Below, piece by piece: positions 2,270 through 24,000 of a DNA stretch of 24,000 nt. Position numbers and translations under genes: made by a program. The stretch lies in the NCBI GenBank assembly GCA_963664115.2, contig CAXWPJ010000002.1, positions 775,160 through 799,159 of the forward strand, given 5' to 3'. A model generated the notes under the pieces. That model saw nothing but the letters and a program-made list of their open reading frames with translations, did no database searches and had not been told where the DNA came from. The stretch comes from Terriglobia bacterium. Lineage in GTDB: Bacteria; Acidobacteriota; Terriglobia; 20CM-2-55-15. The first letter of the stretch is position 1. Every line of letters begins with the position of its first letter.

Positions 2270-4198
2270 TCAAGGCCTGAGCCCTTTGCTGAACACTTCA
2301 TATTGCCGGGCAGCCAAAGGCAATACCAATGCCAGGCCGAGCAGGTCGGTGATCCAACCGGGATGAATTAACACCACGGCTCCGACGAACACGACCGTGC
2401 GTTCCCATCCCGCCAGTGCTGTCCTGGCGTGTCCGATGACTCCGGCTGCGAGCGCCATGACCCCGATCACGCCTGTCGTTGCTGCCAGGAGAATTTCGGT
2501 GGCGGTACCGATCATCAAAAACGCGGGATTCAGCACGAACATGAACGGCAGGATGTAGCCGGCAAGGGAAAACCTCCATGCCGTAAACCCTGTCCGCATG
2601 ATGTCGGCGCCCGCGATCGCTGCGCCGGCATATGCTGCCAGAGCCGTTGGGGGCGTCACCATCGACATCATGCCGAAGTAGAGAATGAACATATGCGCGC
2701 CGATCGGGAGAATCCCCAAGCTCACCAGTGCGGGTGCCGCCAGGGTTGCCAGCAGGAGATAGCAAATGGTTGTCGGGAGCCCGAGTCCGAGAATCACGGA
2801 GGAAAACATCACCAATACCAACGCCGCGTAGATATTCCCGGCGGACAACTCGAGAATGATGGATGCAAAACGGGAGCCCAGAGCCGTCATCACGGTGATC
2901 CCAATGATGATTCCAACCGAGGCGCTGGCGCAGCTGAGAGACGTTGAATTATAGGCGGCAGTTTCCAGAACGCTGACGATCCGCCTCGGAGTCAGCCGCC
3001 CTCCTCTCACGAACATGCTGGTTACGAAGGTGACGACCAGTGCAAATGACGCCGCTCTCGGGGGACTGTATCCGGAAAGCATGAGCCCGACGAGGCAGCC
3101 CACCGGCAGGACGAACAAGAAAAGCTGAGGGCGTCTCAGGATGGTGAGCGCCCGCGCTCCCTGGCCTTCGGGCGACAGGCCACCGATGCCATGACGGACG
3201 GAGTAGAAGTGAATCGTCGTAAACAGAGCCACATAAAAGAGCAGGCCAGGTATCAAAGCCGCTGCGGCGATTCCCAGGTAGGGGACTCCCAGCAACTCCG
3301 CCATGATGAAGGCCGCGGCGCCCATCACGGGCGGGATGAGCTGGCCGCCCGTGGACGCAACGGCTTCGACGGCCCCGGCCACGTGCGGCTGGAAACCGAT
3401 TTTTTTCATCATCGGAATGGTGAGCGATCCCCCGGTGACGACGTTCGCGACGGCGCTGCCGTTGATCATTCCAAGCAGACCGCTTGAAACGACCGCAACC
3501 TTGGCGGGCCCCCCTCGAAATTGCCCGAATGCGGCCTGACCCAGATCAATCGCGAAGTCCAGAGCTCCGACCGTCTGAAGCACAGCCCCAAAGAAGACGA
3601 AGGGAAACACGTAGGTAAACATCACCGTCAGCGCGATGCCGAAGATGCCCTCCATGGTCAGAAACGACTGCGTGAGGATGCGGCTCACGCTGTATCCCGC
3701 GTGGCCGCCGATGTATGTGGGCAGATACGCACCGTAATATGCATACAGGACGAACACCGCGGCAAGGGTCGGAAGCGGCCAGCCGATCAATCTCCGGGTC
3801 GCCTCCAAAACAAGCGTCGTGCCCACGGCGCCCATCACAACGTCCAGAGTTGTCGGCGTGCCCATGCGGTTGATCAGGCCCTCGTAGTCGACCACGATGT
3901 ACGCACAGGCGATGATGCCCCCGGCGGCGAAGGCAAAGTCCAGGAGAGCCCGAAACGGACGCTGCGGACTCCCATCGGGTCTGTCGGTGGGCCGCAGAAA
4001 GGACAAGGCCAGCGCGAACAGCAGGAATATCGCGCGCTCCTGAAACGGTGGCAGCGTAAGCGTGTTGATCTCAAAGAGGACGTAGATCGAAAAGCATGCA
4101 GCCAGGACTCGAATCGAATAGCGGTGAACAGTTTCGAAGCGTGAAGGTCGTGGCCGGGCGGCGGTTTGGACTCCCCCAACGCCGTCGTTCGTGATCAT
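2270..4198 (-). CDS. TRAP transporter fused permease (TAXI-type, DctQM-like fusion)
   Basis: About 640 aa, highly hydrophobic and multi-spanning, directly downstream of a TAXI solute-binding gene. The track starts at TTG 4219. ATG 4198 has AAGGA 7 nt upstream and is the more likely start. Confidence 0.9.
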   Translation of the reverse strand: MITNDGVGGVQTAARPRPSRFETVHRYSIRVLAACFSIYVLFEINTLTLPPFQERAIFLLFALALSFLRPTDRPDGSPQRPFRALLDFAFAAGGIIACAYIVVDYEGLINRMGTPTTLDVVMGAVGTTLVLEATRRLIGWPLPTLAAVFVLYAYYGAYLPTYIGGHAGYSVSRILTQSFLTMEGIFGIALTVMFTYVFPFVFFGAVLQTVGALDFAIDLGQAAFGQFRGGPAKVAVVSSGLLGMINGSAVANVVTGGSLTIPMMKKIGFQPHVAGAVEAVASTGGQLIPPVMGAAAFIMAELLGVPYLGIAAAALIPGLLFYVALFTTIHFYSVRHGIGGLSPEGQGARALTILRRPQLFLFVLPVGCLVGLMLSGYSPPRAASFALVVTFVTSMFVRGGRLTPRRIVSVLETAAYNSTSLSCASASVGIIIGITVMTALGSRFASIILELSAGNIYAALVLVMFSSVILGLGLPTTICYLLLATLAAPALVSLGILPIGAHMFILYFGMMSMVTPPTALAAYAGAAIAGADIMRTGFTAWRFSLAGYILPFMFVLNPAFLMIGTATEILLAATTGVIGVMALAAGVIGHARTALAGWERTVVFVGAVVLIHPGWITDLLGLALVLPLAARQYEVFSKGLRP

Positions 4199-5912: not shown

Positions 5913-7327
5913 GTGTTATTGATGACGGCGAGATCTTCTACCTTTCCCTCAAGCAAGTCTCCGAACGTATCGCAAGTGGCGATCTGTCGCCCGTAGAGGT
6001 CCTGAACGCTGTGATCGAGCGCACCTCGGGCCTCGAACCTCGCTTGAACGCTTACATCACACCCACCTTCGAGAGAGCCATGGACGATGCGCGAATGGCC
6101 GAGCGCGAGATTGCGGCTGGCAAATATCGCGGGCCACTGCATGGCGTGCCCATCGGGCTCAAAGACAACTACTGGACGGAGGGCATCCCAACGACCGCCG
6201 GCTCGAAGCTTCTCGCTGATTTTGTCCCGACCGAGGATGGCAACGCAGTCGCCAGGCTTCGGGCTGCGGGCGCCGTAATCACAGGCAAACTCAATATGCA
6301 TGAGCTTGCGATCGGTGGGACGACGACGAACCCCCACTACGGGGCGACACGCAATCCCTGGGGACTGGACCGCATTCCCGGCGGGTCGAGCGGCGGATCG
6401 GCCGCGGCCGTCGCGGCAGGTTTCTGCTTCGCCGCATTGGGCACCGACACGGTCGCGTCGGTGCGCCACCCGGCATCCCACTGTGGCCTGGTCGGGATGA
6501 AAGCAACATTCGGGCGGGTCAGCGTCTTTGGAACGGTGCCCCTCTCCTGGAGTCTCGATCATGTGGGTCCGATCACCCGTACGGTCGAGGATGCCGCGCT
6601 TGTATTGAACCGAATAGCCGGTTACGACCCCAGGGATTCCGGCTCGGTCGACGTCGAGGTGCCTGATTTCACCCGCCGGCTGGGGGAGGACCTGAACGGC
6701 GTTCGGATTGGGCTGCCACGGAAATATTTTTTCGAGCCTCTCGATCCCGAAGTGCGCGACTCGGTCGAAGCGGCCATCGGGGTGCTGCGGGATCTGGGCG
6801 CCAGCATTCGCGACCTTGAGTTTCCAAGCGCCCCGGAAGCCCACGTCATTTTTCCCTTCCTGAGCCGGCCCGAGGCGGCATCGTTTCAGGAAGATTTTAT
6901 TCGCGGGCGGGCTGAGGCATACGGGGATGTCCGATGGAACGTGGAACTGGGAGAGTTGATTCTCGCGACCGACTATATCCGGGCCCAGCGCCTGCGCACC
7001 GCCATGCGGCAGGAACTTGAGGGAATCATGCGGGAGGTCGATGCCTTGGTGATGCCCACCACTCGAACCGTCGCCCACCCTATCGGTGCTCCGTTTACGA
7101 CCGTCGACGGAAAATCCCTGGACGCATTCGGGCTGATGGTGGGTTTGACAGCGCCCTTTTCACTCACGGGTTCGCCGGCGATTTCCGTTCCATGCGGGTT
7201 TAATTCGGAAGGCCTCCCGATCGGGCTCCAGATTGTCGGCCGCGCGTGGGACGAGGCGATGATCCTGCGGATCGGGGCCGCCTACGAAGGCGCGACGCCT
7301 TGGAGTGACAGACACCCCACGCTTTGA
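5909..7327 (+). CDS. Amidase-signature family hydrolase (GatA/AtzE-like)
   Basis: Carries the GGSSGGSAAAVAAG signature and the upstream KDN motif (GLKDNYWT). Length is 472 aa. Confidence 0.9.
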   Translation: MSVIDDGEIFYLSLKQVSERIASGDLSPVEVLNAVIERTSGLEPRLNAYITPTFERAMDDARMAEREIAAGKYRGPLHGVPIGLKDNYWTEGIPTTAGSKLLADFVPTEDGNAVARLRAAGAVITGKLNMHELAIGGTTTNPHYGATRNPWGLDRIPGGSSGGSAAAVAAGFCFAALGTDTVASVRHPASHCGLVGMKATFGRVSVFGTVPLSWSLDHVGPITRTVEDAALVLNRIAGYDPRDSGSVDVEVPDFTRRLGEDLNGVRIGLPRKYFFEPLDPEVRDSVEAAIGVLRDLGASIRDLEFPSAPEAHVIFPFLSRPEAASFQEDFIRGRAEAYGDVRWNVELGELILATDYIRAQRLRTAMRQELEGIMREVDALVMPTTRTVAHPIGAPFTTVDGKSLDAFGLMVGLTAPFSLTGSPAISVPCGFNSEGLPIGLQIVGRAWDEAMILRIGAAYEGATPWSDRHPTL

Positions 7328-7442
7328 CCGAGCGATCAGGACGTTCTGGCGCTGGGCCCATCAGCGACGACCGCTTGACCATTCATTGAGCCACCGGTCA
7401 GTAACACACAGCATCAAACAATCACGCAAAGGAGTTTCTGGA

Positions 7443-8423
7443 ATGGACGGGAAAATCGTGTTTGAAGAACATATGGCAATCCCCGATACCCTGGACGATT
7501 CGCGCACATTCGCCGAAGGATCCGGGAAGTGGGACCAGTTCGCCCGCCAAATCCTGGATATCGAGGACGAGCGTATCGCCCGAATGGACAGCAACGGCAT
7601 TGAATTCGCCATTCTCTCGCTCAACGCCCCCGCGATTCAGGCGATTCTGGACACGGACACGGCGATCGAAGTGGCTACCCGTGCCAACGACCATCTGGCG
7701 GAGGCCGTCGCCAAACATCCGAATCGTTTTGCGGGCTTTGCAGCCCTTCCCATGCAAGATCCGGACGCCGCCTCGGAAGAGCTGATCCGCTCGGTCAAAG
7801 ATCTGGGTTTCAAGGGTGCTCTCGTCAATGGATTCACACAGAAAGGTGTTCCCGATTCGGCGATCTACTTCGATATCCCCGAGTACCGGAGTTTCTGGTC
7901 CACGGTGTCCGAACTGGACGTGCCGTTCTATCTACACCCAAGAATGCAGATTCCTTCACGTGCTCAACCCTATGAAGGGCACCCGTGGCTGATGAGTTCG
8001 CCCTGGGGCTTTGCGGTGGAAACTTCGATCCACGCACTCCGAATGTGTGGTTCAGGCATGTTCGACGATTTTCCCAATCTGAAAATAATTGTCGGCCATC
8101 TCGGTGAACACATCCCTTACGATCTCTGGCGCATCGACGCCCGGATGCGCTTTTCCCGGCGCGGCTACGAGGGCAAGCGCTTTCTCGGCGAGTACTTCCG
8201 CGACCACTTCTATGTGACGACCAGCGGCAATTTCTGTGATCCGTCGTTCCAGTGCGCCCTGGAAGTGATGGGCGCAGCTCGCATGTTTTTTTCGGCTGAT
8301 TATCCATTCGAGAAAATGGAAGATGCTGCCGACTGGTTCGACAACGCCCCCCTGTCCGATGCCGAGCGCCTGCAGATTGGCCGTACCAACGCGATCAAGC
8401 TGTTTAATCTGGAATTGAAGTGA
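7443..8423 (+). CDS. Amidohydrolase-2 family non-oxidative hydroxybenzoate decarboxylase (gamma-resorcylate / 2,3-dihydroxybenzoate decarboxylase-like)
   Basis: ATG 7443 has AAAGGAG 8 nt upstream; the track ORF starts earlier, at 7305. MDGKIVFEEHMAIPDT...LSLNAPAIQA...FAALPMQDPDAA..ELIRSVKDLGFKGALVNGF...PFYLHPR...IIVGHLGE.IPY.LWRID closely follows my remembered gamma-resorcylate decarboxylase sequence. Confidence 0.85.
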   Translation: MDGKIVFEEHMAIPDTLDDSRTFAEGSGKWDQFARQILDIEDERIARMDSNGIEFAILSLNAPAIQAILDTDTAIEVATRANDHLAEAVAKHPNRFAGFAALPMQDPDAASEELIRSVKDLGFKGALVNGFTQKGVPDSAIYFDIPEYRSFWSTVSELDVPFYLHPRMQIPSRAQPYEGHPWLMSSPWGFAVETSIHALRMCGSGMFDDFPNLKIIVGHLGEHIPYDLWRIDARMRFSRRGYEGKRFLGEYFRDHFYVTTSGNFCDPSFQCALEVMGAARMFFSADYPFEKMEDAADWFDNAPLSDAERLQIGRTNAIKLFNLELK

Positions 8424-8704
8424 CGCGGAGTGGTCGGGTGTCAGAAGTTCGATGCTTGAGAGTTTCGTCGGACGCGATCATGGAAATACCATGTAACGTG
8501 GCGCATCGCTCGCCGCGGAGGATCGGCTCTAGCGGGATGTTTCGCTGGACCTGTGAATTCGGCCGTGCGCCGGCGTTCCGATCAATCTGGAAAACGAGTG
8601 GAACCGTGTCGTACTGAGGGAGGAAAACTTCTCGACGAGCGTGTTACGCTCGACCGGACTGCGGCGACGAAACTGGTGTACACGCATCGCTTCTGAGGAG
8701 CCCC

Positions 8705-9712
8705 ATGATTATTGATTGTCACGGACACTACACAACGGCGCCGGATGCGCTGGGAGAATATCGAAAGCAGCAGATTGCCGCGTTTGATTCATCCCAACCT
8801 GCGGCAAAAGGCGAGATAAACATTTCCGACGATCAACTCCGCGAGAGCGTCGAGGGTGCGCAACTGAAGTTTCAGCGCGAACGCGGTACCGACATGACGA
8901 TATTTTCTCCGCGCGCGTCGTGGATGGCCCATCACCTGGGCGATGCGATGGTGAGCCAGTACTGGAGTGAACACTGCAATGATTTAATCCATCGCCTCTG
9001 TGGGCTGTATCCGAAAAACTTTGTCGGCGTTTGCCAGTTGCCGCAGTCTCCGGGTGTCGGACCGGCGAACTGCATCGGCGAGCTTGAACGGTGTGTCAAC
9101 GAACTGGGAATGATCGGGTGCAATTTAAGTCCCGATCCCTCCGGCGGCCGTTGGACGGCGCCCCCGCTGAGCGATCCATACTGGTATCCGGTCTACGAAA
9201 AGATGGTCGAGTTGGATGTGCCCGCGATGGTTCATGTCAGTGCTTCCTGCAATCCTGCTTTTCATACGACGGGTGCGCACTACCTCAACGCCGACACGAC
9301 GGCCTTCATGCAGTTTCTGACCTCGGATCTATTCAAGGACTTTCCGGCTCTGAGATTCGTCATACCCCATGGTGGGGGTGCTGTGCCGTATCATTGGGGT
9401 CGGTATCGTGGCATGGCTCAGGACCAGAAGCGTCCGCCGCTGACGGAGCTTATGGGTGGCAACATCTTCTTCGACACCTGTGTCTACCACATGCCGGGAA
9501 TCGAGTTGCTTACAAAAGTCGTACCCACCGACAACATCCTCTTCGGTTCAGAGATGGTCGGCGCCGTTCGGGGTGTCGATCCGGAAACGGGGCACTACTA
9601 CGACGATACGAAACGGTACATCGACCAAGCTTCGTGGCTGAGCGATGAAGAGAAGCAAAAAATATTCGAAGGGAACGCACGCAAGGTGTATCCCCGCATC
9701 AACCGGAAATAG
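8705..9712 (+). CDS. ligJ: 4-oxalomesaconate hydratase-like amidohydrolase
   Basis: GAGGAG lies 5 nt upstream of ATG 8705. MIIDCHGHYT..., MVELDVPAMVHVSASCNPAFHTTGAHYLNADTTAFMQ, LRFVIPHGGGAVPYHWGRYRG, FFDTCVYH.PGIELL and NILFGSEMVGAVRGVDPETGHYYDDTKRYID match my memory of Sphingobium LigJ almost block for block. Confidence 0.8.
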   Translation: MIIDCHGHYTTAPDALGEYRKQQIAAFDSSQPAAKGEINISDDQLRESVEGAQLKFQRERGTDMTIFSPRASWMAHHLGDAMVSQYWSEHCNDLIHRLCGLYPKNFVGVCQLPQSPGVGPANCIGELERCVNELGMIGCNLSPDPSGGRWTAPPLSDPYWYPVYEKMVELDVPAMVHVSASCNPAFHTTGAHYLNADTTAFMQFLTSDLFKDFPALRFVIPHGGGAVPYHWGRYRGMAQDQKRPPLTELMGGNIFFDTCVYHMPGIELLTKVVPTDNILFGSEMVGAVRGVDPETGHYYDDTKRYIDQASWLSDEEKQKIFEGNARKVYPRINRK

Positions 9713-9743
9713 GGGACGGACACTTCATGAAGTGTCCGTCCCC
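9712..9743. repeat. Perfect 32-nt palindrome GGGGACGGACACTTCA|TGAAGTGTCCGTCCCC; copy 1 of a palindromic repeat family
   Basis: Read directly. It starts at the last base of the ligJ-like TAG stop. It shares a 21-nt core, CATGAAGTGTCCGTCCCCTTC, with 18248-18268. It could act as a transcription terminator or attenuator between ligJ and the peptidase gene. Confidence 0.85.
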
Positions 9744-10700
9744 TTCCTGTTCGCGGTTCTGACGATCTCTTTACAGGGTTCGGCGCTAGGCCTCGTTCAG
9801 GACGCCCCCCGTGATCCCGGCTTCGGCGCCCTAGCGCGTGAACATATCGGTGAGCTGTCTGACCGAATCGGTGCGCGTGTCGCTGGAAGCCCGGGTGAAG
9901 TGCGGGCCGCCGGATATATCGAAAATGTTTTCTCCCAAATTGGCTACCCGACCCGCGTCCAACCCTTCAGCTTTTCCGGTGGGCCCCGGGACCGCCGGTC
10001 TACACGGGAATCGGCGAATGTTATTGCTGTGAAGGCAGGATCGTCGAACGAGGAAATCATTGTTGGCGCGCACTATGATTCCGAAGTTCGCGGCCGGGGA
10101 GCGGGGGACAATGCGTCGGGAGTAGGCGTGATGCTCGAAATCGCCGCCGCGATTCGGGACGTCGCGACGCCGTACACGATTCGGTTCATCGCTTTCGGTG
10201 CCGAAGAAGAGGGTCTGGCAGGATCGCGCTATACGGTGAGTGAGATCCCCCCTGAGGACATCGGGCGTGTGGTGGCCATGATCAATCTGGACAGCCTGAT
10301 TGCAGGAGACTTCGCTTACGTCTACGGGGATCGAGGAGACAGAGGTGTGGTTCGTGACTGGGTTCTGGCCCGAGCCAGGGAACAGGGTCTTGATCTGCGG
10401 ACACAACCGGGTGAGAACCCTGAATATCCGAGGGGAACGACAGGAGAGTTTTCCGATCACGCTCCTTTCGAGGACGTGGGCATCCAGTATGCGTATTTTG
10501 AATCGACCAACTGGTCACTGGGAGAGCGAGACGGATACGTCCAGGTTGACCCTCAACTCGGAGAAAACGGTTACATCTGGCATACACCGTTCGATACGAT
10601 GGGCTATATCGAGTCGACGTTTCCTGGAAGGATTGATGCGCGTCTCCACTTGTTTGCGACGATGCTCTACCAGGTATTGACAGAATTTTCCGCCCCTTAG
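9732..10700 (+). CDS. M28-family metallo-aminopeptidase, secreted
   Basis: M28 metal-ligand blocks are present: GAHYDS, GAGDNASGVGVMLEIA, FIAFGAEEEGLAGS, MINLDS, SDHAPF. The start is uncertain. GTG 9732 gives (M)SVPFLFAVLTISLQGSALG as a signal peptide. The track ATG 9645 would overlap the conserved ligJ 3' end by 68 nt. Confidence 0.75.
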   Translation: MSVPFLFAVLTISLQGSALGLVQDAPRDPGFGALAREHIGELSDRIGARVAGSPGEVRAAGYIENVFSQIGYPTRVQPFSFSGGPRDRRSTRESANVIAVKAGSSNEEIIVGAHYDSEVRGRGAGDNASGVGVMLEIAAAIRDVATPYTIRFIAFGAEEEGLAGSRYTVSEIPPEDIGRVVAMINLDSLIAGDFAYVYGDRGDRGVVRDWVLARAREQGLDLRTQPGENPEYPRGTTGEFSDHAPFEDVGIQYAYFESTNWSLGERDGYVQVDPQLGENGYIWHTPFDTMGYIESTFPGRIDARLHLFATMLYQVLTEFSAP

Positions 10701-12019: not shown

Positions 12020-12724
12020 ATGAACCTTGATAAAGCGACGGTCCTGGTCACGGGCGGAACGAGCGGCATCGGACGGGCCATAGCGGAGTCCTTGATAACT
12101 GCGGGCGCAAGCGTTGCGGTTACGGGTCGGGATTCCGCCCGGCTTGAGGAGACGGCCGGGGCATTGAGTGCTCTCCCGATTCAGGCGGACGTTGCGAATG
12201 AATCCGACGTGCAGCGGACCTACGAGCAAGTCTTCGATGCCTTCGGTCACCTGGACATACTGATCAACAACGCCGGTCACGGACTCTTCAAGCCCCTGGT
12301 GGACACCGATCGCACCGAGTTCGACCGAATCCTTCAGACGAATGTGACGGGAGCGATGTTGATGGGACGCGAGGCAGCCCGGCATTTTGTTTCCCGGGGG
12401 GGCGGCAACATCGTCAATATTGCCTCGACGGGTGCGGTGCGCGGTGGACCCAACGGCACAGCCTACTACGCGAGCAAATTTGCCCTTCGGGGAATGACCG
12501 AATGCTGGCGGGCCGAACTCCGGCCCCACAATGTGCGGGTGTTCCTCATCAATCCCAGTGAGGTCATCACAAGTTTCGCCGCGACGGCCGGTTTCCCTCA
12601 GGATGACAATCCAACCAAGCTGCACGCGGAAGACATCGCCCACATGGTAAAAGGCGTTCTGGAAATGGACGATCGCGGCTTCACGACCGAGTTGACGATC
12701 TTTGCGACGAATCCTAAGGACTAG
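12020..12724 (+). CDS. Short-chain dehydrogenase/reductase (classical SDR)
   Basis: Carries TGGTSGIGRAIA, NNAG and YYASK motifs. Length is 234 aa. Confidence 0.9.
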   Translation: MNLDKATVLVTGGTSGIGRAIAESLITAGASVAVTGRDSARLEETAGALSALPIQADVANESDVQRTYEQVFDAFGHLDILINNAGHGLFKPLVDTDRTEFDRILQTNVTGAMLMGREAARHFVSRGGGNIVNIASTGAVRGGPNGTAYYASKFALRGMTECWRAELRPHNVRVFLINPSEVITSFAATAGFPQDDNPTKLHAEDIAHMVKGVLEMDDRGFTTELTIFATNPKD

Positions 12725-12760
12725 GTAGAGGAATGGGTGGGGTGGTCGCGATTTAAGATT

Positions 12761-12831
12761 TCGCTCGGTCGTTCAAACGGCCATCCTGGCCGAACGACCG
12801 GCGACCCTTGCCATCATCCTGATGGCAAGGG
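12761..12831 (-). repeat. 71-nt double-hairpin element, copy A (possible structured RNA or REP-like element)
   Basis: The minus strand reads CCCTTGCCATC-AGGAT-GATGGCAAGGG then TCGCCGGTCGTTC-GGCC-AGGAT-GGCC-GTTT-GAACGACCGAGCGA. The same architecture occurs at 23145..23215 (+), with compensatory stem changes. It lies in the convergent gap 160 nt downstream of the methyltransferase stop, on the same strand. Confidence 0.7.
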
Positions 12832-12871
12832 TTATTGGGATCGGCCGAACGATTAAGCATTCCCCAATACG

Positions 12872-12896
12872 ACCCGCAGCGTTCCTCGCTGCGGGT
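12872..12896 (-). other. 10-bp hairpin with AGGAA loop in the operon 3' region
   Basis: The minus strand reads ACCCGCAGCG-AGGAA-CGCTGCGGGT. It lies between the methyltransferase stop and element copy A. Confidence 0.4.
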
Positions 12897-12991
12897 GAAC
12901 AACGAGGCGGTAGCCGAGGCGTTTAGAGTAATAAGATGATTGGATCGGACCCGAACGAAGTTGCCAAGCAGGAAACTCCCAACCCCCGCCA

Positions 12992-13804
12992 CTAGCCAAT
13001 CCGTGTAGCCGTTATCAGCGCATATCCCAGTTGACCTGCGTTGATGGCTTCAAGTGCCGCCTTGGCCATGTGTTTTGCGCTCGTGAAGTCCACGCCGTCC
13101 AGGTCGATCTTCTTGAGTCCGACTGCGATTTCCAGGCCCAGCAACTTCCCGCGAATCTGGTTGACCATTTGCGTGAGTGCATCGTCGTGAGCTGTGACCG
13201 AATCCATCCTGAAACCGGCCGCTTGAAGCATCTCCGTGTAGCCATCGACGGGTCGGGCGTCGGCGATACATGCCACCCACGCCATCAGGGAATCCAGAGC
13301 TTCAGGCAACGTGTCGCTGCGAGTGATGTCGCTGAGGCCGAGGCGGCTTCCTCTCCGCAGGACACGATGGAACTGGGCCCCCGCCTTCGCTTTGTCCGGG
13401 AAGGTACAAAAGGCACATTCGCAGATGATCGCGTCGAATGATGCGTCTTCAAAAGGTAAAAGCTCGGAATCGCCCTGTTGGAATTGGACACGTCCACTGA
13501 GACCGCGTGCGGCGGCTTCCTCGTTTGCCATACGGACGTTGTCCGCTCCGTAATCCACACCCACGACTTCGCAATCAAAGGTTTCGGCAACATGAAGGGC
13601 ACTCGTGCCGGTACCGGAGGCCACGTCCAGAACTCTCAGACCAGGTTCGAGATTCAGTGCCTGTCCGAGTTCAGTGGTCAAGGCCAGTCCGCCCGGATGA
13701 AACGAGTCGCCCAGAAGCAGCCGAACAAAATCCTGTTCGTAAAGTTGCGCGCAGCAGGATTTGAGGTCTTGTCTGGCTGTGGGAAGATCCATCGATTCCT
13801 TCAT
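12992..13804 (-). CDS. Class I SAM-dependent methyltransferase, ArsM-like core
   Basis: SAM motif I is VLDVASGTG. ICECAFCTFPDK aligns with ArsM ISNCVINLSPDK, LGLSDI with LAISDV, and WVACIADA with the ArsM GC.AGA block. There is an N-terminal SCC pair. Its ATG overlaps the radical SAM stop as ATGA (13801-13804). Confidence 0.8.
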   Translation of the reverse strand: MKESMDLPTARQDLKSCCAQLYEQDFVRLLLGDSFHPGGLALTTELGQALNLEPGLRVLDVASGTGTSALHVAETFDCEVVGVDYGADNVRMANEEAAARGLSGRVQFQQGDSELLPFEDASFDAIICECAFCTFPDKAKAGAQFHRVLRRGSRLGLSDITRSDTLPEALDSLMAWVACIADARPVDGYTEMLQAAGFRMDSVTAHDDALTQMVNQIRGKLLGLEIAVGLKKIDLDGVDFTSAKHMAKAALEAINAGQLGYALITATRIG

Positions 13805-18185: not shown

Positions 18186-18277
18186 GAAGGGGACGTGAAG
18201 GGAACGGCCACTTCAGCCGAAATATACTCGTCACGCCCCAATTTCGCATGAAGTGTCCGTCCCCTTCACGTCCCTTC
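18186..18277. repeat. Long imperfect inverted repeat (about 30-nt arms, about 33-nt spacer); copy 2 of the palindromic repeat family, probable terminator of the barrel gene
   Basis: The left arm is GAAGGGGACGTGAAGGGAACGGCCACTTCA (18186-18215). The right arm is TGAAGTGTCCGTCCCCTTCACGTCCCTTC (18249-18277). GCCGAAAT/ATTTCGC extends the pairing inward. The right arm abuts the TGA of the 18276..20786 gene and contains the 21-nt core shared with 9726-9746. Confidence 0.8.
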
Positions 18278-20786: not shown

Positions 20787-21015
20787 CGAAGGCGTGCAGA
20801 ATCAAAGACTTCATCGATTCTAACGAGATGACAGGGTTTTGTCTAAGCCCGAGTCGGTCCCGCTTGACCCGGAACCGGCAAAACCTCTTGACGCTCCAAG
20901 CCCCGAAGATGATCATGGGCACACAGCTTCTTGGCGAAGTTGTTTACTGATGATTCGGGCAAGGATTCGGATTGCCTCTCGCACCTTATGCTCAGGGTGC
21001 GGGTTTGGAGAGCTT

Positions 21016-22029
21016 ATGAAATCGAGAACAGTGCTTGTTGGGGTATCGTGTCTTGTCGGGGCCGCGCTCGTTCTGGCCCAGGCCCAGGCACAGGAAGTGC
21101 GACCGGGCGAAAGGGAATGGCTTGTCCGGGCGATTGCTGGCGTTGTCGCTTCCGGAGCCGAGTGGACGCTGGCCTGGGACGGCTATGACAATGCGGACGG
21201 AATTGTCGGTGCCCCCGACGGCAGCCTTCTGTTTGCTCAGGAACAGCCCAGCCGAGTGCGCAGGCTCGCGCCCGACGACAGCACCTCGGTTTACATGGAG
21301 GGCACCGGTCACGCCGGATCCATCGCCATTGATTCCGAGGGCCGTCTGCTTGCTGTACAGCGGGGTTGCACGGACCCGGGGCGACCTGCCGAAATTGAAT
21401 GCAGCGTAGCGCCGAAACTCAGTGTCCTGGCTCCGGATTACGAGGTCCGGGTGGACAGGTTTTCAAACGGCGACGCGTTTGGCCGGCTCAACGACCTGGT
21501 TGTCGATCGCAGGGGCGGCGCGTACTTCACGGTCGGAGGCGCCTACTACGCCAGTCCGGACGGCGAAGTGATCACGGTTGCTGCGGCCGGTGATATCCGT
21601 TCAAACGGGATTACGCTCAGCCGGGACGAACGAACCTTGTACGTGACCAACCGCGAGGTCGTCGTCGCTTTCGATGTGCAGCCGGATGGGTCGGTGCGCA
21701 ACCGCCGTGATTTCGGCACACTCGATGGAGATGGCGGCGGTGACGGGATGACCATCGATGCCGAAGGCCGGGTCTACGTAACCGGAAACCTGGGTGTCCA
21801 TGTGCTGAGCCCGGAGGGAGAGCATCTCGGAATGATTCCGACGCCGCGCCGTCCCATAACCGTTGCCTTCGCCGGACCCGAGAAGAAGACCCTTTATATT
21901 GTAGGTAGCGGGGCCGTTGACGTCTTCAGAGAACGGAATTTTGAAACCCCTGAGGGTGTTCGCAATAATTCGAAGACCATATACAAGATTCCCATGCTGG
22001 CCGAAGGATTCCAGGGGCGGGCAAAGTAG
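21016..22029 (+). CDS. Secreted SMP-30/gluconolactonase/LRE-like beta-propeller protein, paralog 1
   Basis: ATG 21016 (MKSRTVLVGVSCLVGAALVLAQAQA) has GGAG upstream. Motifs NGITLS.DE.TLYVT, DGM.ID.EGR.YV and AFAGP.KKTLY are typical of this fold. The track ORF from 20839 adds an implausible leader. Confidence 0.8.
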   Translation: MKSRTVLVGVSCLVGAALVLAQAQAQEVRPGEREWLVRAIAGVVASGAEWTLAWDGYDNADGIVGAPDGSLLFAQEQPSRVRRLAPDDSTSVYMEGTGHAGSIAIDSEGRLLAVQRGCTDPGRPAEIECSVAPKLSVLAPDYEVRVDRFSNGDAFGRLNDLVVDRRGGAYFTVGGAYYASPDGEVITVAAAGDIRSNGITLSRDERTLYVTNREVVVAFDVQPDGSVRNRRDFGTLDGDGGGDGMTIDAEGRVYVTGNLGVHVLSPEGEHLGMIPTPRRPITVAFAGPEKKTLYIVGSGAVDVFRERNFETPEGVRNNSKTIYKIPMLAEGFQGRAK

Positions 22030-22138
22030 AGGTCTCATCTGGGATTCTCGACGATGCCGCTGATGCAGATGACGTCTGCATGTGTTCTTGGCATTCATAT
22101 CGCTGGTTTTTCCCCGCGCGCGCGGGATTGGAGAAATT

Positions 22139-23083
22139 ATGAAATCGAAGACTGTATTCACGATTATCGGATGTGTTCTGGGGTCGACCCTGATGTTTAG
22201 CTCGGTGACTGCGGCACAGGGGCCGCAGGCGGAGACGCCGGTCACGACTCGGAGCATCCCGGGGGTCGTCGCTGCCGGTGTGAGGGTCGAACATGTCTGG
22301 AAAGGATTGCAGGCAGCGGATGGTCTCATCAGCGAACCGGACGGAACGCTCCTGCTGCCCGAGCAGCGAGCGGATAGGATCGGCAGGTTCAACGCGGACG
22401 GAACAGTCACGCCCTACCTGGAAGACACGAACGAAGCCGGTGGACTCGCGTTCGACGCGATGGGCCGCCTCATTTCTGTAGAGAGAAGAATGCCCCAGGT
22501 GAGGGTCCTGGTTCCCGAACGCAGAGTCCTGGCGGACAGCTACGAAGGTGAGCCGCTCGGGCGGCTGAGCGATATCATCGCAGACCAGAAAGGGGGTGTG
22601 TATATCACCGAGGGCCGCAACGCCTCGGTCTACTACCTCAACGCAGGCGGCAGACTCAACCGCGTCGCCGACGACATCGACGGCGCAAACGGCATCACGC
22701 TGAGTCCGGATGAGAGCACCCTCTACGTGACCAATCGAGAGGCCGGCATCCTGGCCTACGATGTTGCCCCGGACGGGGGTATCGGAAACCGCCGCCCCTT
22801 CGTGCAGCCGGAAGGCGGACAGGACGGCCTGGCAGTCGACGGCACGGGACGGCTCTATGTCGCCGGCCAGGCTGGCGTTCAGGTCTTCAGCCCCCAGGGA
22901 CAGTTCCTGGGACTCATTCCCATACCCCGGCCTACGACGACTCTGGCCTTTGCCGGACCGGACAAGAAGACGCTCTACGTCATCGGCCGCGGCAACGATC
23001 TTCCAGGCGGTGACAGCGGCGATGCAAGGTCGATGTACAGGATCTCAATGCTTGCGGAGGGTTTCAAAGGCCGCGCCAAGTAA
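22139..23083 (+). CDS. Secreted SMP-30/gluconolactonase/LRE-like beta-propeller protein, paralog 2
   Basis: ATG 22139 (MKSKTVFTIIGCVLGSTLMFSSVTAAQG). The start region GCGGGATTGGAGAAATTATGAAATCGAAGAC is nearly identical to that of paralog 1 (GCGGGTTTGGAGAGCTTATGAAATCGAGAAC). It shares the C-terminus MLAEGF.GRAK. Confidence 0.8.
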   Translation: MKSKTVFTIIGCVLGSTLMFSSVTAAQGPQAETPVTTRSIPGVVAAGVRVEHVWKGLQAADGLISEPDGTLLLPEQRADRIGRFNADGTVTPYLEDTNEAGGLAFDAMGRLISVERRMPQVRVLVPERRVLADSYEGEPLGRLSDIIADQKGGVYITEGRNASVYYLNAGGRLNRVADDIDGANGITLSPDESTLYVTNREAGILAYDVAPDGGIGNRRPFVQPEGGQDGLAVDGTGRLYVAGQAGVQVFSPQGQFLGLIPIPRPTTTLAFAGPDKKTLYVIGRGNDLPGGDSGDARSMYRISMLAEGFKGRAK

Positions 23084-23144
23084 CGTAAGTCGTGCACGGT
23101 TTGAAACCGAGCGTGGGGCTGGAACAGGTCGATATACCGAAGAG

Positions 23145-23215
23145 GCCTCACAATCAGGATGATCGTGAGGCTCGCCGGTCGTTCCGACAGGATGTCCGAT
23201 TGAACGACCGAGCGA
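23145..23215 (+). repeat. 71-nt double-hairpin element, copy B
   Basis: The plus strand reads GCCTCACAATC-AGGAT-GATCGTGAGGC then TCGCCGGTCGTTC-CGAC-AGGAT-GTCC-GATT-GAACGACCGAGCGA, followed by AAAAAA. It lies 61 nt downstream of the paralog-2 stop on the same strand, in a convergent gap. Confidence 0.7.
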
Positions 23216-23286
23216 AAAAAGCCCCCCGGCCCGGAGACTGAAGTTCAAAGTTATGCACTGCGGGCAGGGTCGAAGCCGCGTCCGTT

Positions 23287-24000
23287 CTATTTCGACCGAC
23301 CCGGGTAGCCTCGGGCCACCATGGGAATCTTGTAGATCGTTTTGCCGTTGTTCCGGAAACCCTCCACAAGCTCATAATCTCTGCCATTAGGAGCCAGTGC
23401 TCCCCTGCCAACCACGTAGAGTGTCATCTTTTCGGGTCCCGCGAATGCAGCGTTGACGACGCCGCGCGGCGTGGGAATGGTGCCGAGGTATCCACCTTCG
23501 GGGCTGAATACGCGAACGCCGTTATTCCCGGTGACATAGAGACGGCCTTCGTTGTCGACCGCCATGGCGTTGCCGTTCCCGTCGGGGAGCGTCGCGAATT
23601 CCCGCCCGTTGCCGACCGTTCCGTCGGCCTGGATGTCGAAAGCGTGGACCAGGGAGCCGCTGCCTATATAGAGGGTTGTTTCATCCGGACTCAGCATGAT
23701 TCCGCTGGCGCGGATCGTGTCGCTGATTCGGATCGTCCGACCGCCGGGCTTGATGTAATAAGCCAGGCCGTCGGTGAAATAAACTGTATCGTTCCTGTCG
23801 ACGACGGCTTCGCTCGGCCGTGTGAGTGGGGTTCCCTCGTAGTTATCGGCGATGACCCGGCGTTCGTTTTCGGGATAAACGATGCCGATCTTTGTGGGCA
23901 CGTTGCAGGGCAGATTGCCCCTGCCGGAATCCGTGCAGGTTTTCTGCGCGGCCACGAGGCGGCCTTTGTAGTCGATCGTGACGGCACCGGCACCTTCCGT
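23287..24000 (-). CDS. SMP-30/gluconolactonase/LRE-like protein, paralog 3 (N-terminus beyond the right edge)
   Basis: The frame stays open upstream of the track start: 23956-24000 translates as TEGAGAVTIDYKGRLV, which matches paralog 1 (GHAGSIAIDSEGRLL). The C-terminus is ...TIYKIPMVARGYPGRSK. Confidence 0.75.
   Translation of the reverse strand, partial: TEGAGAVTIDYKGRLVAAQKTCTDSGRGNLPCNVPTKIGIVYPENERRVIADNYEGTPLTRPSEAVVDRNDTVYFTDGLAYYIKPGGRTIRISDTIRASGIMLSPDETTLYIGSGSLVHAFDIQADGTVGNGREFATLPDGNGNAMAVDNEGRLYVTGNNGVRVFSPEGGYLGTIPTPRGVVNAAFAGPEKMTLYVVGRGALAPNGRDYELVEGFRNNGKTIYKIPMVARGYPGRSK

Follow-up and report, generated by a model that had tools for sequence, protein, structure and literature searches.

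The stretch analysed here (the window) comprises 24,000 nucleotides of a Terriglobia genome (contig CAXWPJ010000002.1, positions 775,160 to 799,159) and holds two pairs of convergent genes whose spacers share a small structured sequence. The first spacer lies between a short-chain dehydrogenase gene (12020-12724, plus strand) and a class I methyltransferase gene (12992-13804, minus strand), the second between two SMP-30/gluconolactonase-like (SGL) genes (22082-23083, plus strand, and 23287-23955, minus strand; all four assigned with Pfam). An initial annotation, made from the nucleotide sequence by eye, had described the shared sequence as a 71-nt double hairpin with compensatory base-pair substitutions. 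Our analysis indicates that it very probably forms the conserved core region of a miniature inverted-repeat transposable element (MITE) of 260-281 bp with ends of the IS630 type, which carries the hairpins as cargo maintained by compensatory change.

A double hairpin between convergent genes

The longest inverted repeat pair that a repeat search recovers from the window joins 12759-12839 to 23137-23217 (81 nt, 81% complementary). Inside it, the minus strand of 12761-12831 (copy A) and the plus strand of 23145-23215 (copy B) align without a gap, and each consists of two neighbouring hairpins with AGGAT loops. Alignment and repeat search thus bear out the initial annotation as to the place of the two copies and their common architecture. 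The hairpins are referred to as H1 and H2 in the following:

12805-12831, minus strand: H1 of copy A, CCCTTGCCATC-AGGAT-GATGGCAAGGG, a perfect 11-bp stem ('hairpin 2' of the initial annotation)
12761-12804, minus strand: H2 of copy A, TCGC/CGGTCGTTC/GGCC-AGGAT-GGCC/GTTT/GAACGACCG/A/GCGA ('hairpin 1' of the initial annotation)
23145-23171, plus strand: H1 of copy B, GCCTCACAATC-AGGAT-GATCGTGAGGC
23172-23215, plus strand: H2 of copy B, with the same outer arms as in copy A

Between the two copies, H1, with its ATC-AGGAT-GAT apex, differs at eight positions of the lower stem. Six of these form three compensatory pairs (C-G to G-C, U-A to C-G and G-C to A-U), and the fourth differing pair is A.C when read on the AGGAU strand but G.U on its complement. 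In H2, the TCGC CGGTCGTTC and GAACGACCG A GCGA arms are unchanged, while the upper stem shows one C-G to A-U exchange and one mismatch. For both hairpins, the alignment reproduces the substitutions that had been counted by hand. When folded, both copies are far more stable than shuffled sequence on either strand (z = -5.2 to -7.6), and none of 200 shuffles was as good.

A longer repeat family in Terriglobia genomes

Public genomes, represented by one genome per species, were scanned for further copies with the invariant core TCGCCGGTCGTTCNNNCAGGATG. The core occurs in at least 92 further stretches, of which at least 64 belong to a single Terriglobia metagenome-assembled genome (MAG), CBDCKF01, where they lie on two contigs of 1.8 and 4.6 Mb. 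The remaining matches come from three more Terriglobia MAGs, apart from two on contigs shorter than 4 kb in bins labelled Gammaproteobacteria and Verrucomicrobia (L002 and L019), which are probable cases of mis-binning. One candidate from Phycisphaerae (L003) was rejected as a chance partial match to the core pattern. The pattern had no match in viral contigs, and the full element had none in plasmids or phages.

Conservation around the core anchor reaches about 200 nt upstream and about 80 nt downstream, and a family profile built for nhmmer yields 130 hits in the 0.74 Mb sampled around the copies. As its matches span 12721-13002 in copy A and 23118-23217 in copy B, the element must be longer than 71 nt, and the double hairpin is its core. 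The sharp boundaries noted initially are therefore only the limits of what the two window copies share, and the supposed unit of 71 nt that was present twice is instead a widespread core inside an element bounded by terminal inverted repeats.

The consensus of 53 full copies reads (C)TA GTGTCCTGAGTCAGAAGTTCG ... CGAACTTCTGACTCAGGACAC TA(G), its two 21-nt ends being perfect inverted repeats of each other. The distance between paired repeats is 260-281 bp, and the element of about 275 bp is G+C-rich and non-coding. Upstream of H1 and H2 it holds a third hairpin, H0, with the family consensus ACCCGCACCG-TCGGAC-CGGTGCGGGT. No Rfam family matches, in keeping with the initial remark that the family was not recognised: across the whole window nothing reached the gathering thresholds, and even with permissive settings 12600-13000 produced nothing but noise below threshold (mir-451, PrrB_RsmZ and others). 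The family is undescribed and so far limited to a few Terriglobia MAGs, from a group of soil Acidobacteria in which it lies between genes in dozens of copies per genome.

Covariation and conservation of the hairpins

Covariation was evaluated on 95 distinct copies with a user-specified structure comprising H0, H1 and H2. Standard pairs fill 93.6% of the cells, and two-sided changes occur in 18 of the 38 pairs, amounting to 140 cells. The covariation score is 0.144, as against 0.055 for column shuffles, none of 500 of which reached the observed value, and about 0.02 when the partners are slid against each other. The helix of H0 shows double changes in eight of its ten pairs across the family, whereas the middle of H2, which served as the search pattern, is invariable in most of the 95 copies. 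RNAalifold, run unguided, returned the same three hairpins with 14 of 24 pairs compensated. The compensatory pattern first seen between two copies is therefore general in the family.

The terminal repeats behave differently. They show 208 one-sided and 29 two-sided changes, with 17 two-sided changes expected if the ends were independent, and a reading of the paired ends as an RNA stem was rejected on these counts. Rather than a conserved stem, they are recognition sequences for a protein and decay once the element has inserted.

This difference in conservation also appears in copies and positions that owe nothing to the search pattern. In 17 copies that the pattern had not retrieved, the hairpin modules are about 86% identical to the consensus and the spacers 73%. 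Copies at the same site in different species (L010/L042 and L005/L017/L073) were compared over unselected core positions only, i.e. H1 and the 3' half of H2 (46 nt). Here, the core differs at 2-5 of the 46 nt (4-11%), and these few differences are mostly compensatory, while the non-hairpin rest differs by 30-50% (Fisher p 7e-3 to 1e-6). Likewise, the stems of copy A are perfect although its terminal repeats retain only 12 and about 7 of 21 positions. By these comparisons, the H1-H2 core appears to outlast the decay of terminal repeats and spacers. The loops are also kept: GGA is found in 95 of 116 H1 loops (about four of the 116 are without loop sequence in the alignment), in 14 of 17 H2 loops from unselected copies and in 60 of about 100 H0 loops. 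In four copies the H1 loop is exactly inverted and reads ATCCT in place of AGGAT.

A predicted autonomous partner

A metagenome scan with the terminal repeat TAGTGTCCTGAGTCAGAAGTTCG matched at least 120 loci. Among the matches listed there are 64 two-ended elements, 19 of them 1147-1212 bp long and the others 98-616 bp. The long elements listed, which include L112 (1151 bp), L128 (1158 bp), L157 (1201 bp) and 16 more, have exact inverted matches to the terminal repeat, and all 18 that could be scored have TA on both sides. The open reading frames (ORFs) of L128 (366 aa) and L112 (326 aa) both match the Pfam families DDE_3, HTH_32, HTH_29, HTH_23 and HTH_28, with E-values in the tested long elements of 9.6e-24 for DDE_3 and 3.1e-15 for HTH_32. 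This domain set corresponds to a predicted transposase of IS630-family architecture, and the 1.15-1.2 kb insertion sequences (ISs) are the predicted autonomous partner of the MITE. IS630/Tc1-mariner elements insert at TA and duplicate it (PMC2170065), and a preference of IS630 for TA within CTAG is stated in the title of Tenzen and Ohtsubo (1991) as cited in PMC2170065.

The long ISs have only the terminal-repeat region in common with the hairpin MITE, and among the matches listed no metagenome MITE that shares these repeats has the double hairpin; the interiors there are other GC-rich hairpin stacks. The hairpin core is therefore the cargo of one MITE family within a wider group of elements with the same ends. 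H0, H1 and H2 are thus apparently cargo missing from the autonomous IS, with stems that, to judge from the alignments, are maintained by compensatory change. The initial annotation had also considered a known REP or MITE family with an associated RAYT transposase. Part of this holds, in that the repeat appears to be a MITE with an associated transposase, but the latter is of the IS630 type and not a RAYT, and the family had not been described.

Three other ISs near the copies were considered as partners and rejected. An IS4-like element with DUF4372 and DDE_Tnp_1 domains in locus L022 has its own repeats and a duplication of about 10 bp; a 1105-bp IS5-type element has ends that differ from those of the MITE; and an 822-bp IS5-family element with a DUF4096 orfA protein, which inserts at CTAG, has other terminal repeats. 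The first of these lies within the L022 copy (about 2340-3660), encodes a 404-aa protein and is present in five near-identical copies. The 822-bp element, with the terminal repeat GGGCGTGTTAACACTAA, sits at CTAG inside or beside MITE copies (L025 3059-3880, L071 and L051).

Further small elements were seen as well. Ends of this IS630 type also bound other MITE families, about 260-285 bp long, whose interiors are again GC-rich hairpin stacks but unrelated to the hairpin family, and shorter families with these ends, of 98-216 bp, are also found among the metagenome matches listed. The CBDCKF genome harbours a second MITE family of about 277 bp, whose terminal repeat CTAGTGRCCTGTAAC... agrees with that of the hairpin family only in its first bases; it often adjoins hairpin-family copies at a common CTAG. 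The loci are:

Other same-ended MITEs in metagenomes: L106, L119, L134, L143, L145, L149, L155, L156, L160, L164, L169, L172, L193, L203
Second MITE family in CBDCKF: L012 3058-3334, L020 1582-1858, L031 1065-1341, L033, L037, L051, L055, L061, L071, L077, L082

Target site and position at gene ends

Well-kept copies mostly lie between two TAs, and in about 70% of cases the adjoining outer base is C at the 5' end and G at the 3' end. Among the matches listed in the terminal-repeat scan, 55 of 63 elements have TA on both sides (one TA belonged to the search pattern) and 44 of 63, counting all sizes, read CTA...TAG. As the outer bases vary (TTA..TAG, CTA..TAC) while TA does not, they lie outside the element. 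A duplication of the four bases CTAG was rejected in favour of TA on the same grounds, the youngest copy (L060) being flanked by CTA...TAC. From these flanks we infer a TA target duplication.

The window holds three members of the family, one of them full-length:

12721-12995, minus strand: copy A, a full-length, old putative MITE including both CTAGs; nhmmer profile match 13002-12721, 257 bits, hidden Markov model (HMM) positions 16-302
12724-12992, minus strand: copy A, element proper, with TA flanks at 12993-12994 and 12722-12723
12972-12992, minus strand: 5' terminal inverted repeat of copy A, decayed; GTGGCGGGGGTTGGGAGTTTC agrees with the consensus GTGTCCTGAGTCAGAAGTTCG of family and IS at 12 of 21 positions (hand count)
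12872-12896, minus strand: H0 of copy A, ACCCGCAGCG-AGGAA-CGCTGCGGGT, a third hairpin beyond the 71 nt first described
12724-12744, minus strand: 3' terminal inverted repeat of copy A, decayed; agrees with the consensus at about 7 of 21 positions (hand count)
12992-12994, minus strand: TAG stop of the methyltransferase gene, made of the flanking TA and the first G of the element
12722-12724, plus strand: TAG stop of the short-chain dehydrogenase gene, formed by the second flanking TA together with the terminal base of the element
23118-23217, plus strand: copy B, a fragment; nhmmer 97 bits, HMM positions 165-264; about 27 nt of spacer, H1 and H2
8431-8483, plus strand: third remnant, strongly decayed; 5' terminal repeat and subterminal sequence TGGTCGGGTGTCAGAAGTTCGATGCTTGAGAGTTTCGTCGGACGCGATCATGG; weak profile hit

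Copy A extends from the CTAG at 12992-12995 to the CTAG at 12721-12724, from which both convergent genes draw their TAG stops. Because both stop codons lie in the terminal CTAGs, copy A is the entire spacer between the methyltransferase and the dehydrogenase genes. No ORF of at least 80 aa lies inside 12721-12995. The third remnant sits just past the stop of ORF 7305-8423, and a longer remnant at the orthologous place in CBDCKF (L103 15886-15987) marks it as an old shared insertion.

Orthologous loci, obtained through homologues of the window methyltransferase, show that both presence and orientation of the element vary between corresponding sites. In CBDCKF (83% protein identity), the gap between the methyltransferase and dehydrogenase genes is likewise filled by a copy from stop to stop, which is inverted and carries another H0 subtype; given these two differences, the same CTAG was probably hit independently in the window genome and in CBDCKF. 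Two other relatives have no element in this gap, but 60 or 130 nt of unrelated sequence, and their genes end in TGA or TAA stops. The site of copy B is free of the element in the orthologous CBDCKF spacer.

The association with gene ends is general. Both ends can be recognised in 25 copies, and 16 of these 50 ends have a terminal TAG that serves as the stop of an ORF of at least 80 codons; the neighbours of 78 classifiable copies are convergent in 33 cases, tandem in 38 and divergent in seven. An IS630-type transposase would excise the MITE and paste it into a TA, with CTAG preferred. As the element begins with G beside TA, insertion at a TAG stop would rebuild the stop codon, which would explain copies flush against gene ends. 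In the window, one old copy would have filled the whole gap between convergent genes and supplied both of their stops.

Role of the hairpins and alternative explanations

The hairpins may form in read-through transcripts of the adjacent genes, where, as our best guess, they would act as REP-type (repetitive extragenic palindrome) 3'-end structures or as a protein-binding module that makes insertions harmless or even useful. On the AGGAU strand of H1, G.U pairs outnumber A.C pairs by 36 to 12, although these counts are not independent, as the copies are related by descent, and the common stem variants are linked by intermediates with U.G or G.U on this strand. Both observations speak for a strand-specific role of the single-stranded form.

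A number of results weigh against the interpretation as a MITE with a cargo that acts in RNA. On the side of the transposon, the terminal repeats of copy A itself are badly decayed, and its membership therefore rests on the profile match and the family consensus. No clean pair of filled and empty sites differing by the element and one TA was found, and a metagenome scan for the empty site of copy A gave no match. The autonomous IS copies stem from soil and peat metagenome contigs and not from the genomes with the hairpin MITE, and the 0.74 Mb sampled around MITE copies contain no IS with the same ends. On the side of the RNA, a scan of 12600-13100 gave neither promoter-like nor terminator-like sites. 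H0 lacks the asymmetry of H1 (19 G.U and 15 A.C), and A.C prevails in the outer stem of H2 (8 G.U and 14 A.C), a helix whose 5' arm the search pattern held constant. Of the copies between tandem genes, 27 have the AGGAU strand antisense to the genes and 11 have it sense (p about 0.015, a binomial estimate). Lastly, the four flipped H1 loops imply that DNA-level palindrome events occur, which could also create 'compensatory' changes.

This last point leads to an explanation that we regard as possible, if somewhat unlikely, namely that the stems are 'compensated' by DNA-level events such as quasi-palindrome template switching, cruciform repair or gene conversion between copies, the hairpins being selfish or neutral passengers. 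Exact loop inversion is a characteristic trace of DNA events mediated by hairpins, the two strands fold with equal stability, the orientation at orthologous sites is unfixed, and dozens of copies per genome would provide ample templates for conversion. However, conversion should homogenise whole elements, whereas only the hairpin modules are kept while spacers and terminal repeats diverge by 30-50%. Strand-symmetric repair does not predict that the H1 intermediates are mostly G.U on one strand (36 versus 12), and the loops are conserved like the stems (GGA in 95 of 116 for H1, with the reservation given above). The structure may thus act in RNA or in single-stranded DNA, or it may be kept by DNA-level palindrome correction.

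Among the explanations that operate on transcripts, a bidirectional intrinsic terminator is decidedly unlikely. It would suit the position of both window copies between convergent genes and their stable hairpins on both strands, but 12600-13100 contains no hairpin followed by a T-run on either strand, H2 is followed by AGCGAAAUCUU and not by a U tract, and the element is found between tandem (38) and divergent (7) genes as well. A Csr/Rsm-type sponge or regulatory small RNA (sRNA), with GGA hairpin loops that titrate a CsrA-like protein, would agree with the loop sequences, since CAGGAUG is the repeated motif of CsrB and CsrA has as its core site a GGA presented in a hairpin loop (PMC7652899). 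CAGGATG occurs in H1 and H2, with GGA in H0 of copy A, and 11 times in the window where 3.7 are expected; moreover, the best weak Rfam hit on the AGGAT strand is PrrB_RsmZ. Still, we consider this very improbable. That hit reaches 12.9 bits where the gathering score is 44 (E = 1.1), 12600-13100 showed neither a promoter nor a terminator, and there are dozens of dispersed, transposon-bounded copies where one or a few loci would be expected. The stems have 10-13 bp, while selected CsrA ligands mostly have no more than four contiguous pairs (PMC7652899), about 40% of the H0 loops are without GGA, and the GGA strand is mostly antisense between tandem genes. A tblastn search with an E. coli CsrA query (approximate sequence) found no csrA in the 0.85 Mb sampled, which is uninformative at that sample size.

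It is scarcely credible that the hairpins are a REP/BIME-type palindrome (REPIN) spread by a RAYT (Y1) transposase, for all that GC-rich palindromes, high copy number and enrichment between convergent genes are typical of REPs according to PMC3733652. What is repeated here is a composite of 260-281 bp that has TA flanks and 21-nt terminal inverted repeats, its ends are common to an IS630-type IS with a DDE_3 transposase, its consensus has no GTAG or CGTC tag at the hairpin feet, and the multi-copy proteins near the copies are DDE transposases of the IS4 and IS5 types without a Y1 domain.

Returning to the structured cargo of a MITE, one further step can be imagined, which we hold to be unlikely: the hairpin cluster could be an exapted functional unit that the MITE distributes, a sequence-specific loop signal (AGGAU/CAGGAUG, in both neighbouring loops) read by a host RNA- or single-strand-binding protein, for instance a CsrA-like regulator or a factor that processes or stabilises 3' ends. 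If so, transposition would wire the 3' ends of dozens of genes into one post-transcriptional circuit, and the survival of a 71-nt core with compensatory changes inside long-decayed transposon ends would be explained.

Other repeats in the window

A perfect 34-nt palindrome, AGGGGACGGACACTTCATGAAGTGTCCGTCCCCT, occupies 9711-9744 in the short gap after ORF 8705-9712, and a related, imperfect inverted repeat of 85 nt lies at 18190-18274 between an outer-membrane barrel gene and the next gene. The two look like a second small palindromic repeat, seen only in the window genome among the loci compared. Several other long repeats of the window (D1, D7, I2 and I3) are accounted for by three consecutive paralogous SGL genes at 20839-23955. 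A near-identical contig (L093; ENA ERZ28669063 ctg85909) shows a coordinate drift of 15 nt between window positions 9712 and 13000.

Implications

The covariation is genuine, but its meaning moves from a structured RNA with two copies to the constrained, structured cargo of a transposon with at least 92. For annotation, a candidate novel structured RNA is replaced by a defined repeat family with a consensus, ends, a target site and a partner transposase. The family can be masked in Terriglobia genomes, where it fills many spacers at gene ends and supplies even stop codons. The element is of an ordinary type; what is unusual is how well its structured interior has been kept, and therein lies its biological interest: constraint acts more strongly on the interior of this MITE than on its transposition signals, and the core persists after the terminal repeats are gone. 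The unrelated GC-rich hairpin stacks in other MITE families with the same ends hint that structured cargo aids persistence at gene ends.

Comparison with known systems

The element fails the tests for a REP/RAYT tag, a Csr/Rsm RNA and an intrinsic terminator. With REP/BIME and REPIN sequences it shares stable extragenic palindromes at gene ends and an enrichment between convergent genes, the latter as described in PMC3733652, but REPs measure 20-40 bp, carry GTAG/CGTC tags and are linked to RAYTs, whereas this is a composite bounded by terminal inverted repeats and linked to a DDE transposase. CsrB/RsmZ sRNAs also present CAGGAUG in hairpin loops (PMC7652899); unlike them, the element lies far below the Rfam threshold, is multi-copy and mobile, and has long stems and no transcription signals of its own that could be found. 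The CIR repeats of Caulobacter and Brucella consist of two long stem-loops that are joined by a linker and have a short conserved motif in the terminal loop (PMC2229807), a trait that recurs here with AGGAT/CAGGATG in both loops. CIR, however, have no terminal inverted repeats, and their loop motif is the CcrM methylation site GANTC, whereas the present element has repeats of the IS630 type.

Closest in kind are the Correia elements and other MITEs derived from IS630/Tc1-mariner transposons. The Correia elements of Neisseria (NEMIS, CREE) have terminal inverted repeats of about 24 bp, TA termini, a target duplication and many intergenic copies next to genes (PMC2229807); the Terriglobia element is alike in these features, with a target duplication that is probable in its case. 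Correia elements are described in PMC2229807 and PMC2649163 as co-transcribed, with a structured RNA that is bound and cleaved by RNase III. They differ in being 107-155 bp long and A+T-rich and in folding by end-to-end pairing; the element described here is about 275 bp long and G+C-rich, conserves internal hairpins and has no sequence similarity to them. Bacterial MITEs derived from IS630/Tc1-mariner resemble it in having ends identical to those of an IS with a transposase of the DDE_3 and HTH set, TA flanks within a preferred CTAG, and a non-coding, high-copy, intergenic character (PMC2170065). What sets the Terriglobia element apart from them is an interior unrelated to the parent IS, with three covarying GC-rich hairpins whose conservation exceeds that of the terminal repeats.

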